From the NCBI GenBank assembly GCA_964468755.1, contig CAYXWH010000002.1:5444-69443 (forward strand): a stretch of 64,000 bases of DNA, given 5' to 3'. The stretch's first letter is position 1; every line of letters starts with the position of its first letter. The position numbers and the translations under genes were made by a program. Positions 11,604 through 63,154 of the stretch are shown piece after piece. The notes under the pieces were generated by a model that worked only from the letters and a program-made list of their open reading frames with translations, ran no database searches and had not been told where the DNA came from. The stretch is from an uncultured Dehalococcoidaceae bacterium. Its GTDB lineage: Bacteria > Chloroflexota > Dehalococcoidia > Dehalococcoidales > RBG-16-60-22.

Positions 11604-12014
11604 ATGTCCGACGAATCAAACAAAGACGATACGCGGTGGCGGAAAGCGCTAACACCGGAACAATACCGGGTCACCCGTGAAAAAGGGACGGAGCCACCAT
11701 TTACTGGCGCCTATTACCATTTAAACGAACCGGGCACCTACCGGTGCGTCTGCTGCGGTAATGAATTGTTCCCTTCGGAAACCAAGTTTGATTCCGGCAC
11801 CGGCTGGCCCAGCTTCTGGGCGCCAATTTCAGAGGAGAACGTTCAAGCCGCCGTTGATAGCCGACACGGTATGGTACGGACGGAGGTGCTCTGCCCACGG
11901 TGCGGTGCCCACCTCGGTCATGTATTTGACGATGGGCCACTGCCGACCGGGCAGCGCTACTGTATTAACTCCGCAGCGCTTGACTTCGTCGCTGCCCCCC
12001 GTGACAGCCAGTAA
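11604..12014 (+). CDS. msrB: Peptide-methionine (R)-S-oxide reductase
   Basis: [30 protein letters not shown] and the catalytic RYCINS motif. Confidence 0.9.
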
Positions 12015-12024
12015 TGAGAGACCA

Positions 12025-12834
12025 ATGGCACATATCAATCAAACCATGATTATTGTGATATCGATTATCAGCCTGGCCATACTTATCGCCGCCGGCTACC
12101 TTCTTATCCCGCGGCAAGACAAGGCACCGGTGGCGTCGCCGGTAAATACCCCTGCCCGCCAGACGGCCATACCATCCATCGATACCGCTGCCCCCGCCGG
12201 CACGGAAACAGCCACGTTTGCCCTGGGCTGATTCTGGGGACCAGACTCCCGGTTCGGGAGCATCCCCGGAGCAATCCGCACCCGGGTCGGTTATGCCGGA
12301 GGCAGCACCGGCAACCCCACGTATTACAATCTGGGCGACCATTCCGAGACGGTGCAGATCGACTATGACCCGAGCCGGATTTCATATGGCGAACTGCTGG
12401 ACATTTTCTGGAACAGCCACTATCCCGTTGCTGAACCAGGATCGCGGCAATACATGTCCATCATCTTCTATCATAATGAAGAGCAGGAAAGGCTGGCGCT
12501 GGAATCCAAAGCTCGTGAGGAAGCCAGACTAAACAGACCGTTCTTCACGGAAATAGTCCCCGCCTCTGAATTTTTCCTGGCTGAGCAGTACCATCAGAAA
12601 TATTACCTCCGCCAGGTACCGGAACTTTTACGCGAGTTCGCTGCCATTTATCCCAACGCCGAGGACTTTATCGCCTCCACCGCCGCGGCGCGTGTCAACG
12701 GATACCTCGGCGGCTACGGTACTCCATCAGCGCTGTCAGCAGAGATAGATACCCTGGGCTTGTCCCCGGAGGGCAAGGCAAAGCTAAACCGGATTGTATC
12801 AGCATCAGCGGGAAAGTACGCCTGCTCCACGTAA
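12025..12834 (+). CDS. msrA: Peptide-methionine (S)-S-oxide reductase MsrA with in-frame TGA (candidate selenocysteine U69) at the catalytic Cys position and an N-terminal hydrophobic anchor
   Basis: The single frame from 12025 to 12834 reads MAHINQTMIIVISIISLAILIAAGYLL...TATFALG-TGA-FWGPDSRFGSIPGAIRTRVGYAGGSTGNPTYYNLGDHSETVQIDYDP.... The TGA at 12229-12231 replaces Cys of the MsrA GCFWG motif. The ORF track splits this gene into 11761-12231 and 12352-12834, which share one frame. Confidence 0.75.
12234..12269 (+). promoter_or_regulatory. SECIS-like bipartite RNA hairpin 3' of the msrA TGA
   Basis: Lower stem CUGGGGA (12234-12240) pairs with UCCCCGG (12263-12269). An internal loop follows. 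Upper stem CUCCCG (12246-12251) pairs with CGGGAG (12255-12260), with apical GUU (or GGUUC). The apical loop lies about 20 nt after the TGA. Confidence 0.5.
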
Positions 12835-12901
12835 CACTGGCACGATAAAGCCAGATAGGGTATAATGGGCGGTAAGTAATAGTGGTGGAGTTCCGTACTA
12901 G

Positions 12902-13438
12902 ATGAAAGCATTTTTCCGCGAATTTCTGATAACAATCGCCATTGCCGCTGTAATCTGTATCGCCTTTCAGTCCACTCTCCAGACTTTTATCGTGGTCATG
13001 ACCAGCATGGAACCCAACTTTCATGAGGGACAGCGCCTTCTGGTCAATAAAGCCGTCTACTTTTTCGAAGAACCGGAACGCGGCGACGTCATCATTTTTA
13101 AGGCGCCGGGAAACCGGCAAGGCGATTATATCAAGCGGATTATCGCCCTACCCGGTGACAACGTCGAGATAAAGGACGAAGCCGTCTATATCGACGGGAG
13201 CCGGCTGGACGAGCCCTATATCATGAGCCCGCCCGGCTACACGCTCGCCGAGCAGGAAGTACCCGAGTGCAGCTACTTCGTCCTCGGCGATAACCGCAAC
13301 AACAGTGACGACTCTCACCATGGCTGGTACGTGCCCGAAGATAATATTATTGGCAAAGCCTGGCTCTCCATCTGGCCGCCGGACAAATGGGAGGTAGTCC
13401 CTGACTACCGGCTGGAGGAGCAACTGGCAAGTTCCTGA
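12902..13438 (+). CDS. lepB: Signal peptidase I
   Basis: N-terminal TM segment, SMEP (catalytic Ser region), GDYIKRIIALPGD and FVLGDNRNNSDDSH boxes. Confidence 0.85.
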   Translation: MKAFFREFLITIAIAAVICIAFQSTLQTFIVVMTSMEPNFHEGQRLLVNKAVYFFEEPERGDVIIFKAPGNRQGDYIKRIIALPGDNVEIKDEAVYIDGSRLDEPYIMSPPGYTLAEQEVPECSYFVLGDNRNNSDDSHHGWYVPEDNIIGKAWLSIWPPDKWEVVPDYRLEEQLASS

Positions 13439-27537: not shown

Positions 27538-28578
27538 ATGACAGCACAACTTGATGAGCTAGAGTCGAAAGCATTACAGGAACTGGCCGGTATTGACCAG
27601 GTTAAAGAGCTGGATACATGGCGGGTGCGCTACCTGGGTAAGAAGGGAGCGCTGACCGCCATACTGCGCAGCCTGTCATCGCTTTCCCTGGAAGAAAGAA
27701 AGACGGTGGGCAGCCGCGCCAACGAAGTGAAGAAGCTCCTTGAAGACAGCCTGAAACAGAAAGACCAGTCTTTACGAGAGACGCAGTTCACTGCTGACCG
27801 CCAAAAAGAAACCGTGGACGTTACCCTGCCCGGTCGGCCACTGCCGGTCGGTCACCTTCATCCCATCACCCAGACAATAAACGAAATGTGTGACATCTTT
27901 ATGTCCATGGGCTTTCAGGTCATGGGGGGACCCGACGTGGAGTGGGACAGCTATAACTTCGAGGCGCTCAATATCCCCGCCGAACACCCGTCCCGTGATA
28001 CCATGTCGACCTCATGGGTGGACTATCGAAACGAGAGCGACAATATGACCATGCTGCTACGCACCCATACCACATCAGTCACCGCCCGGGTGGTCGAGAC
28101 CATGACACCGCCGATACGGGTCATATATCCGGGTAAAGTCTACCGCTATGAAGCCAGTGACGCCACCCATGTCCCGATGTTCCACCAGATTGACGGATTT
28201 GCCGTTGATAAAGGCATTACCATGGCTGACCTCAAGGGAACGCTTTACGAGTTCGCCCGCCGCTTCTTCGGCGAGGAGCGGAAGGTCCGTTTCCGCTGTG
28301 ATTATTTTCCCTTCGTCGAGCCCGGCGTGGAGATGGCTATCGAATGTTTGAACTGCCGCGGCAGTGGCTGCCGGCTGTGCGGCTACAGCGGCTGGATAGA
28401 AATACTGGGTGCCGGCATGACCCACCCCAAGGTGCTGGAGCGCGGCGGCATCGACTCCAAGGCATATGGCAGCTTTGCCTTTGGTATTGGCATTGACCGG
28501 CTGCCCATGCTCCGCTACGGGATTGATGATGTGAGGCTGTTTTACGGTAACGACCTCCGATTTTTAAGACAGTTCTAG
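27538..28578 (+). CDS. pheS: Phenylalanyl-tRNA synthetase alpha subunit
   Basis: Coiled N-terminus, HPITQ, LLRTHTTSV and FRCDYFPFVEPG class II motifs. Confidence 0.9.
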   Translation: MTAQLDELESKALQELAGIDQVKELDTWRVRYLGKKGALTAILRSLSSLSLEERKTVGSRANEVKKLLEDSLKQKDQSLRETQFTADRQKETVDVTLPGRPLPVGHLHPITQTINEMCDIFMSMGFQVMGGPDVEWDSYNFEALNIPAEHPSRDTMSTSWVDYRNESDNMTMLLRTHTTSVTARVVETMTPPIRVIYPGKVYRYEASDATHVPMFHQIDGFAVDKGITMADLKGTLYEFARRFFGEERKVRFRCDYFPFVEPGVEMAIECLNCRGSGCRLCGYSGWIEILGAGMTHPKVLERGGIDSKAYGSFAFGIGIDRLPMLRYGIDDVRLFYGNDLRFLRQF

Positions 28579-61540: not shown

Positions 61541-62788
61541 ATGACCAGCGAAAAACAGTCTAACTACCGATGGTATATCCTCGCCATAGCGACACTGACC
61601 TTATCTCTGGTGGCATCCGCGCCGAGACAGTGCATGCCTGTCCTGTTCAAGGAGATATCAGAGGATCTTGGCCTCGACCTGGTTCAGGTGGGTACAGTCT
61701 GGGGAATGAATGCCCTCGCCGGTGCTGTGGCCGGACTCCTGGGCGGACTGGTGGTTGACCGCTTCGGGATAAAACGTACCCTCGTCACTGCCTGCCTGTT
61801 AATCGCAATAGTGATAGCACTGAGAGGATTTACCTGGGACTTCATGAGCCTCTCAGTAGCCATGTTTCTTTTCGGGATTTTTGCTTCACTGGTACCGAAA
61901 GCCGGGCATAAAAGCTCGGCAATATGGTTCCCGTCCAATCGACTGGGTATGGCTAACGGTATTTTGTCAATTGGTATGACTATGGGTTCAATGATGGGCT
62001 CAATGATAAGCGCCACGATTCTGTCCCCGCTGCTTGGCGGCTGGAGAAATGTCTTCTTTTTGTACGCTGCGGCGCCTCTGGTCCTCAGCCTGCTATGGCT
62101 TACCACAGGTCGAGAACCGCACCAGGTTGAATCATCAGCCGAGGAAACTGGCACTGCGCCGTTCCGTACTACACTGCTCCGCATCTTACGCAACAAACAG
62201 GTCTGGATAATCGGCATAATCCAGATGGGTCAGATGGGAGCTATGCAGGGAGCAAACGGTTATCTGCCAATCTACTTACGGAATATCGGCTGGTCTCCGG
62301 TCACTGCGGACAGCATCATGGGCATACGCTCCGGAGTCATGACCCTGTTCACCATCCCGATGGTTATGCTGTCCGACCGGATGGGCTTGAGGAAAGGTCT
62401 ACTCATTCCCATGCTGCTTAGCTCAGGTATATGCCTGGGACTGGTTCCATTTTTCGACGGCGCCACGTTATGGGCACTGCTTATTCTTGCCAGTCTCATC
62501 CGGAGCGGGCAAATGGCCTTGTTTTATTCCCTGATAACCGAGACCGAAGGTATCGGGGGACGGTATATAGGTACCGCGATAGGACTGACAAGTACGGTAA
62601 GCCAGTTGGGCGGCTTTTTCGCTCCTCCACTGGGCAATAGCCTGGCCCTTATTGAGCCGGGCATGCCCTTTATCTTCTGGGCAGGACTGTCGTTAGTTAC
62701 CTTATTGGGTTTCTTTTTCATCAAGGAACGAAAACGGCCAAAGACGGGACATCCAGGAGACGCCATCATGCCCGCCGTGGATGGCTAG
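61541..62788 (+). CDS. MFS transporter
   Basis: 415 aa with about 12 TM segments and an MFS loop motif GGLVVDRFGIKR. Confidence 0.8.
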   Translation: MTSEKQSNYRWYILAIATLTLSLVASAPRQCMPVLFKEISEDLGLDLVQVGTVWGMNALAGAVAGLLGGLVVDRFGIKRTLVTACLLIAIVIALRGFTWDFMSLSVAMFLFGIFASLVPKAGHKSSAIWFPSNRLGMANGILSIGMTMGSMMGSMISATILSPLLGGWRNVFFLYAAAPLVLSLLWLTTGREPHQVESSAEETGTAPFRTTLLRILRNKQVWIIGIIQMGQMGAMQGANGYLPIYLRNIGWSPVTADSIMGIRSGVMTLFTIPMVMLSDRMGLRKGLLIPMLLSSGICLGLVPFFDGATLWALLILASLIRSGQMALFYSLITETEGIGGRYIGTAIGLTSTVSQLGGFFAPPLGNSLALIEPGMPFIFWAGLSLVTLLGFFFIKERKRPKTGHPGDAIMPAVDG

Positions 62789-63154
62789 CTTTATTTTACC
62801 CGTCTCATTAACCGTAGCAAATGCTGTTATGTCAATCCCGGGCAACCTGGCAGAGTTGTGATTTAAACGGCGCAAAACCTGATATTGGGTCCAGGTTCCG
62901 ATCATGGAAGAGGCGATTTCCACCTTGCCTGATGGCGTCTGAAAGCCGGACTGCTCATGGAGCCGGGGCGGCCGTTCCGGCAGGTCATACTTGATTCCCT
63001 CAGGATGCCATTTCAAATCGGCAAAGGTTATCCCGGCCGGCTCAAGCAAATCGTCAACGCACTTCTCAAAGTCGCCATCCCAGAATTCATTGCCCAAGCC
63101 AGGCTTCTCTGCCAGTTCGGCATAGATTTCCCATTCCGGCCGGCATTCGCCCAC
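62702..63154 (-). pseudogene. Remnant of a molybdopterin (DMSO-reductase family) oxidoreductase gene
   Basis: GECRPEWEIYAELAEK.GLG..FW.GD...........GITF..LK..P.G.........GFQTPSGKVEI matches from memory the region preceding the C-terminal MopB-CT domain. It is followed by a degenerate ARLPGID...ETGKIKLA tail. The N-terminal roughly two-thirds is missing, and the reading frame opens immediately after the upstream gene's stop. Confidence 0.5.

Follow-up and report, generated by a model that had tools for sequence, protein, structure and literature searches.

The window analysed here is a stretch of 64,000 nucleotides (nt) of contig CAYXWH010000002.1 (assembly GCA_964468755.1), from an uncultured Dehalococcoidaceae bacterium. 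It carries an msrA gene in which an in-frame TGA occupies the codon of the catalytic residue, and UGA-69 of this gene very probably encodes selenocysteine (Sec). The TGA recurs at the same codon in independent assemblies and in relatives, it is followed by a conserved, covarying hairpin in the register of a bacterial selenocysteine insertion sequence (SECIS), and the product belongs to the family of CoMsrA, the selenoprotein MsrA of Clostridium oremlandii. A preliminary description of this DNA had proposed a selenoprotein MsrA (U69) rather than a nonsense mutant. That call is supported by the TGA in orthologues, by the SECIS in the TGA forms and by the nearness to CoMsrA; what the description had missed were the SECIS hairpin, the membrane anchor, the helical domain and the C-terminal Cys reported below.

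The in-frame TGA of msrA and the hairpin downstream

The msrA frame runs from the ATG at 12025 to the TAA at 12832–12834 and counts 269 sense codons, UGA-69 (Sec) included; its sole break is the TGA at 12229–12231 (codon 69). Re-reading of the sequence agreed with the preliminary description on the single frame broken only by this TGA, on the context TATFALG-[TGA]-FWGPDSRFGS, in which the TGA takes the place of the Cys in the MsrA motif GCFWG, and on the MsrA-like character of the frame downstream, where all named motifs (VGYAGGSTGNPTYY, HSETVQIDYDP, LLDIFW and QYHQKYY) were found again. The same holds for the split of the gene at the TGA in the mechanical list of open reading frames (ORFs), which gives 11761..12231 and 12352..12834 in the same frame. 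Public gene callers cut msrA as well, into a 68-amino-acid (aa) product (12025..12231) that starts at the ATG at 12025 and C-terminal products of 126 or 160 aa. The 68-aa and 126-aa fragments were called in each of the six public contigs introduced below, the 160-aa variant is also on record, and none of the fragment records has a name.

An exact-protein look-up with MsrB retrieved the same locus in six contigs, from six samples and two assembly pipelines (ENA ERZ27256770 and ERZ27256778; JGI 3300029258, 3300017989, 3300029267 and 3300017987). All six have TGA at codon 69, with an identity to the window of 99.3–100%, and they are independent, because scattered positions differ from the window. 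In five of these six strain-level variants msrA has no mismatch to the window at all. The sixth (L085, from JGI 3300029267) keeps the TGA and shows five clustered msrA substitutions at the equivalent of window 12532–12546 (N170G, R171S, F173V and a silent change in Phe174), which may mark a loop of variable sequence or a mixed assembly at this spot.

As relatives, we used the 80 closest loci from a scan of one genome per prokaryotic species (GTDB representatives). The best identity to the window MsrA among these loci is 66%, and the species of the window is therefore not among the GTDB representatives. Three of the 80 loci were unmatched by the motif search, which leaves 77 readable loci; the homologous codon is TGA in 46 of them, TGC in 17 and TGT in 14. 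Sampling of the loci was not biased toward TGA, because one seed peptide carried Cys. The preliminary description had proposed to look for Cys or TGA at this column and had called Sec-containing MsrA rare; with 46 TGA against 31 Cys codons, the latter is wrong within this subfamily, in which the Sec form is the majority of the closest relatives. The TGA forms (Sec forms) come from Dehalococcoidia, Anaerolineae, other Chloroflexota, Nitrospirota, Desulfobacterota and one Thermoleophilia metagenome-assembled genome (MAG). Their downstream frames are intact and their products have normal lengths and C-termini, except for two frames cut by contig ends and one product (L055, 215 aa) that stops early in the helical region; the frameshifts and stops that the preliminary description had named as contrary evidence are not piling up in these relatives. 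In a neighbour-joining tree the window protein groups with Sec forms of Dehalococcoidia (e.g., L025, L046, L007 and L002), and Cys clades nest within Sec clades.

Three loci from Hadarchaeota MAGs (L041, L052 and L077) encode a subfamily MsrA fused to a C-terminal MsrB-like domain. These fusions measure 389–418 aa and end in ...CINSAAL(K/R)F(I/V)P. The archaeal members of the subfamily are all Cys forms, none with TGA.

Downstream of the TGA, the RNA of the window folds into a hairpin that starts at the UGA, with a minimum free energy (MFE) of -32.3 kcal/mol for the 72 nt from the UGA. The loop G is position 12252, at +24 from the U of the UGA and 21 nt after its A, and is followed by a U at +25. 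A lower stem (12232–12240 with 12263–12271) is present in the window and, by per-sequence folds, in a subset of relatives (L044, L027, L025, L055, L016, L006 and L026), and is absent in many. Published bacterial SECIS elements have a stem of 6–8 bp and a conserved loop G about 20 nt 3' of the UGA (PMC4605307, PMC1088965), and the geometry of the predicted hairpin fits this description.

For the family, hairpin columns were counted from the U of the UGA in a gapless alignment of 47 TGA forms and 31 Cys forms. The hairpin of the TGA forms keeps a fixed register, in which columns 18–22 pair with 28–32; the stem is often lengthened by the pair 23–27 and by 16–17 with 33–34, and reaches 5–8 bp across the family. 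The loop reads N-G-U-U-Y at +23 to +27, with G24 in 46/47 TGA forms and an invariant U25. RNAalifold pairs 18–23 with 27–32 in the 47 TGA forms and forms no pairs in the 31 Cys forms. For a 7-bp stem, 83.5% of the cells are paired in the TGA forms against 47.0% in the Cys forms, the latter being the shuffle level, and all five core pairs are formed in 38/47 TGA forms against 5/31 Cys forms. With the 3' partner moved 1 to 3 columns in either direction, the TGA forms pair to only 24–58%. Compensatory changes are found at the pairs 18–32 (CG, AU, GC, UG), 19–31 (UA, GC, UG) and 23–27 (GC, AU), and some of them couple amino-acid replacements on both strands of the stem (e.g., L079, GCC...CGU). The covariation score observed was reached by none of 500 shuffles for the TGA forms and by 285 for the Cys forms, and three synonymous sites are nearly fixed in the TGA forms, namely the G at column 30 in the Gly codon GGG (46/47 vs. 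11/31 in Cys forms; Fisher p = 7e-10), the C at column 21 (46/47 vs. 13/31; p = 1.5e-8) and the loop G24 (46/47 vs. 15/31; p = 2.3e-7), although these shuffle statistics and p-values are overstated, because the relatives share ancestry and the hairpin sits in coding sequence.

Like the SelB-bound SECIS of the E. coli fdhF type, the msrA hairpin lies within the coding region directly 3' of the UGA and presents a small apical loop with a conserved G and then U about 20 nt after the UGA. It differs in having a core without an evident bulged U and a family-specific sequence that matches no Rfam model, and its binding of SelB is putative. The essential loop residues of fdhF, G23/U24, stand one position earlier than G24/U25 of the msrA hairpin.

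Three Cys orthologues with TGC (L003:5410–5454, L005:10064–10108 and L015:10184–10228) keep a perfect GACUCCC-NGUUC-GGGAGUC in SECIS register. These hairpins have the appearance of fossil SECIS elements, left over from recent conversions of Sec to Cys.

Selenocysteine machinery and alternative readings of UGA-69

Several observations weigh against Sec at residue 69. Neither the 64-kb window nor the roughly 19 kb of flanking DNA taken from public contigs (8.7 kb upstream and 10 kb downstream) yielded selA, selB, selC or selD; because only about 83 kb of the genome is covered, this absence is uninformative rather than negative. ARAGORN predicted no tRNA at all in the window, and on the 46 TGA-form loci it predicted ordinary tRNAs only, with no tRNA-Sec near msrA. 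The single-sequence fold of the hairpin is unexceptional for a G+C-rich coding stretch (z = -1.6). At gathering thresholds, Rfam had no match anywhere in the window, and a permissive scan of 12200–12320 gave chance matches only (E > 1), with no SECIS family among them. The hairpin also overlaps the conserved coding stretch D-S-R/Q-F-G-S; the control that counts here is the set of Cys-form orthologues, which encode nearly the same peptide. What the sequences show is the recurring in-frame TGA, the covarying hairpin that is conserved with it and the family to which the protein belongs, and from these we infer that Sec is inserted, what the reductant may be and how the protein sits in the membrane.

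When 30 window proteins, every ORF of SelA, SelB or SelD size among them, were compared with Pfam, only housekeeping genes came up, such as ComEA/ComEC, MutL, UvrD, ThrRS, ProRS, MetRS, FtsH, GlnA, a TRAP transporter, IspG, Dxr and RseP; PheS was identified from its translation. A TGA upstream of the ORF at 27538 was considered as selD-linked and rejected, since it sits in the pheS leader. Few bacteria in BSepDB are richer in selenoproteins than Dehalococcoidia MAGs, for which 46–49 are recorded (PMC13326102).

The frame could be that of a pseudogene, in which a TGC-to-TGA nonsense mutation killed a Cys-type msrA that is now decaying. Such a mutation is a single base change, gene callers do give two fragments, and the roughly 83 kb looked at hold no Sec machinery. 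However, the TGA stands at the same codon in 46/77 orthologues from several phyla, in intact frames that are conserved downstream, and five of the six strain-level variants match the window throughout msrA. Only the TGA forms, moreover, share an RNA structure that shows compensatory changes together with synonymous sites that are fixed. The recurrence of the TGA in intact orthologous frames excludes the pseudogene that had worried the preliminary description, to within a slim residual chance. The other worry raised there was a sequencing or assembly error at 12231, the true base being C or T. All six contigs, from six samples and two pipelines, read TGA at this codon while differing elsewhere, and the 46 other genomes read TGA as well; an error is excluded on these grounds, and the chance that we leave to it is minute.

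The UGA might also be read through as an amino acid other than Sec, by near-cognate (Cys or Trp) or machinery-independent suppression or with Cys carried on tRNA(Sec), or it might mainly terminate translation and leave a regulated 68-residue membrane peptide. The Sec machinery of the genome, not found in the 83 kb, gives this reading some room, as does the constant competition of UGA recoding with termination; a recoding efficiency of 30–40% is reported for E. coli (PMC4513850). Readthrough without Sec is nevertheless hard to reconcile with a hairpin that has the register and the loop G of a SelB-binding SECIS, with a site at the redox-active Cys column, where the Sec/Cys pair is a hallmark, with the insertion of Sec by the closest characterised homologue and with the documented use of Sec by Dehalococcoidia, while a peptide of 68 residues would consist of an anchor and a linker without evident function. 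We consider readthrough without Sec, or termination, unlikely, with a small weight left to it. The idea that UGA has become a sense codon throughout the genome (code 4 or 25) has nothing to speak for it except this in-frame TGA. Because TGA terminates 15/53 window genes and msrA is the only real gene with a TGA inside its frame, reassignment is excluded, and we grant it next to no probability; all further mid-gene TGAs of the window belong to candidates that lie across real genes in another frame or on the opposite strand. Recoding of UGA-69 as Sec is the reading followed below.

Architecture, proposed recycling and predicted membrane anchor of the protein

By its sequence, the window gene is a member of the CoMsrA-type family, with a predicted role as methionine-S-sulfoxide reductase. 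The match to PF01625 scores 138 bits against a cut-off of 23.7 and spans profile positions 1–147 of 153, and that to PF20939 scores 32 bits, also against a cut-off of 23.7. The motif G-[TGA]-F-W-G (residues 68–72) aligns to GCFWG of 4U66 and 4LWJ. These two structures and 7C13, all of CoMsrA, are the best PDB matches (E 1e-64), with an identity of 53% over 193 ungapped residues (window residues 62–254); ordinary Cys MsrA structures match the window protein at E 1e-27 to 1e-33. The PMSR domain aligns gap-free to CoMsrA residues 9–144, and the alignment runs on through the helical-domain residues 145–201 of CoMsrA to window residue 254.

The natural selenoprotein CoMsrA has 209 residues, among them Sec16 but not a single Cys, and folds into a catalytic domain and a unique helical domain (PMC4479559). 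With Sec the enzyme is 20 times more active than with Cys, and glutaredoxin, not thioredoxin, recycles it (PMC4479559). Reviews list MsrA with GUFWG/H among the experimentally verified bacterial selenoprotein families (PMC13188914, PMC9312934). The window protein shares with CoMsrA (Clostridium (Alkaliphilus) oremlandii OhILAs; PDB 4LWJ, 4LWK, 4LWL, 4LWM, 4U66 and 7C13) the UGA-encoded catalytic position in G-U-FWG, the PMSR domain followed by the helical domain PF20939, and an anaerobe as its source. Whereas CoMsrA starts 8 residues before the motif and is a soluble enzyme of the 1-Cys type without any Cys, the window protein is longer by about 60 residues at its N-terminus (anchor, linker and IPxID motif) and ends in a tail with one Cys, and Sec is proven in CoMsrA but predicted here. 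Cys-type MsrA proteins (E. coli, bovine, M. tuberculosis; PF01625) have the catalytic fold and a GCFWG-type motif in common with the window protein, but they use a Cys nucleophile, one or two resolving Cys and thioredoxin recycling, and are without the helical domain.

Cys267 sets the window protein apart from the 1-Cys subtype of CoMsrA, a feature that does not define the family. Tail Cys residues occur in 14/47 Sec forms, often as C-P-x-P (C-P-[LIV]-P), and 13 Sec forms are free of Cys; recycling of the '1-Sec' and of the 'Sec plus tail-Cys' type thus seem to coexist in the family. A tail Cys located 10–25 residues past the helical domain was noted in L008, L011, L013, L021, L028, L036, L038, L044, L058 and L066. 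Cys267 may be a resolving residue that forms a selenenylsulfide, although this role is a guess. A census of 150 ORFs around Sec-msrA in the relatives gave msrB as the sole recurring neighbour, at 6 of about 44 loci; genes for thioredoxin, glutaredoxin or CcdA do not recur there.

According to the mechanism that we propose, UGA-69 would be recoded as Sec with the help of the mRNA 3' of the UGA, which would fold into the SECIS hairpin at 12246–12260. As in the known bacterial mechanism, the hairpin would be the binding site of SelB-GTP loaded with Sec-tRNA(Sec), which would bring Sec to the ribosome and compete there with release factor 2. By homology, Sec69 would attack the sulfoxide of methionine-S-sulfoxide, free the methionine and become a selenenic acid, which could be resolved either by Cys267 on the flexible tail, through a selenenylsulfide, or by an external thiol reductase of the glutaredoxin type, as for CoMsrA. 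Throughout, the protein would be tethered to the membrane by its N-terminal hydrophobic segment and a flexible linker.

A signal-like N-terminal segment was counted in about 45/47 Sec forms and about 17/31 Cys forms, alternative start codons included. In the Sec forms this segment is a signal peptide, a lipobox (e.g., LLASC, LLSAC) or a membrane anchor, and the lipobox-like L-[AS]-[GAS]-C found in about two dozen relatives gives these the look of exported lipoproteins. Signal-like starts are seen, for example, in L002, L007, L014, L016, L021, L025, L029, L046 and L066, and Cys forms without any such segment include L020, L035, L037, L040, L054, L062 and L070. The anchor of the window protein has no Cys and looks uncleaved. 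There is no Lys or Arg before it, and R30 and K33 follow it, which by the positive-inside rule argues for a cytoplasmic catalytic domain. Because most relatives bear signal or lipoprotein peptides at the same place, we nevertheless lean towards a domain that faces outward, the side of the membrane being a guess.

The motif IP(P/S)ID..AP..TET stands directly before the catalytic domain (window 12181–12207; residues 49–61, AIPSIDTAAPAGTE). It is kept in anchored and unanchored family members, and the C. oremlandii enzyme is without it.

Tentatively, and at somewhat less than even chance, the Sec-MsrA of this subfamily may be an envelope protein, which anaerobic Chloroflexota, Nitrospirota and Desulfobacterota would expose on the external side of their cytoplasmic membrane, where it would mend oxidised methionines in surface proteins. 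As an equally tentative part of this proposal, which we hold possible rather than probable, Sec69, perhaps together with the tail Cys (C-P-x-P, or KYACST in the window), would be recycled by an extracytoplasmic reductant. A full-text literature search returned no paper that ties selenoprotein MsrA to signal peptides, lipoproteins or anchors, and the membrane anchor on Sec-MsrA is a feature not described previously. A resemblance can be drawn to Neisseria PilB and Streptococcus pneumoniae MsrAB2, in which an Msr domain follows an N-terminal signal or anchor, suggesting repair of envelope proteins. Both, however, work with Cys, are joined to MsrB or thioredoxin domains and depend on a CcdA/DsbD-type electron supply, whereas the window gene is unfused.

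Locus, neighbouring genes and implications

The features of the locus are listed in Table 1. The genes msrB and msrA probably form one operon, because the msrB stop lies only 10 nt before the msrA ATG.

Table 1. Features of the msrB-msrA locus, in positions of the window.
Feature	Position	Strand	Basis
msrB, methionine-R-sulfoxide reductase, Cys type, 136 aa, without signal or transmembrane segment	11604..12014	+	Pfam SelR PF01641, E 8e-53
msrA, full predicted selenoprotein gene, with UGA-69 (Sec) and TAA end	12025..12834	+	Frame; Pfam PMSR and MsrA_helical; PDB 4U66, 4LWJ, 7C13 at E 1e-64
Hydrophobic segment, predicted membrane anchor, residues 8-28 (IIVISIISLAILIAAGYLLIP)	12046..12108	+	Kyte-Doolittle 19-residue maximum 2.79
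Pro/Ala/Thr-rich linker, about 33 residues, 29-61	12109-12207	+	Translation
MsrA catalytic (PMSR) domain, residues 62-197	12208..12615	+	Pfam PF01625, E 3.9e-40
UGA codon 69, predicted to be read as Sec, catalytic residue of G-U-F-W-G	12229..12231	+	TGA in 46/77 relatives, Cys in others; TGA in 6/6 assemblies
Putative extended SECIS hairpin, lower stem UUCUGGGGA / UCCCCGGAG around core	12232..12271	+	MFE structure
Putative SECIS core hairpin, 6-bp stem CUCCCG/CGGGAG, loop G-U-U	12246..12260	+	Fold; RNAalifold; covariation; synonymous-site fixation
C-terminal helical domain, Pfam match residues 211-247	12655..12765	+	PF20939 'Selenoprotein methionine sulfoxide reductase A, helical domain', E 1.1e-7
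Cys267 (TGC), tail ...GKYACST, only Cys of the protein, candidate resolving residue	12823..12825	+	Translation

A scan for promoters and terminators around the msrB-msrA operon found nothing above chance. A promoter-like site on the forward strand (CTGGCA, 18-nt spacer, TATAAT; 10/12 matches) at 12837–12866, of a kind that is not above chance in this region, directly follows the msrA stop and precedes the signal peptidase I gene (12902–13438).

Elsewhere in the window, the gene for ribosomal protein L19 (1257–1877, forward strand) encodes 206 residues with a recorded match to the Pfam L19 family. The usual L19 has about 115 aa and is much shorter. On the reverse strand, a 150-aa ORF at 62702–63154 without a Pfam match is called as a gene in the public contigs and overlaps the 3' end of a convergent MFS transporter gene (61541–62788) by 87 nt. 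About 6 kb upstream of the window start, the contigs ENA ERZ27256770 and JGI 3300029258 carry an insertion-sequence-type integrase/transposase (rve, DDE_Tnp_IS240) and a 135-aa ORF (L091:2513–3984). This insertion sits between a methyltransferase gene and ftsZ, and the methyltransferase is called with 126 or 181 aa depending on the contig.

Current concepts are left unchanged by these results, as Sec-MsrA, the bacterial SECIS and the use of Sec in Dehalococcoidia had already been described. The gene adds an unannotated, split Dehalococcoidia member to an experimentally grounded Sec-MsrA family. Each public copy is stored as two meaningless fragments (68 aa; 126 or 160 aa), and dozens of TGA-form orthologues are expected to be split likewise; because the gene is stored in this way, the enzyme is invisible in metabolic reconstructions of uncultured anaerobes. 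Less expected were the majority of Sec among close relatives, the fossil-like hairpins and the near-universal export or anchor signals on the Sec forms. In this subfamily the closest relatives usually carry Sec rather than Cys, and the Cys clades inside Sec clades, some with a hairpin that looks like a fossil, make a clean case for Sec/Cys exchange. The pairing of the Sec form with export or anchor signals raises the question of whether selenium-dependent methionine repair is extracytoplasmic in these bacteria.

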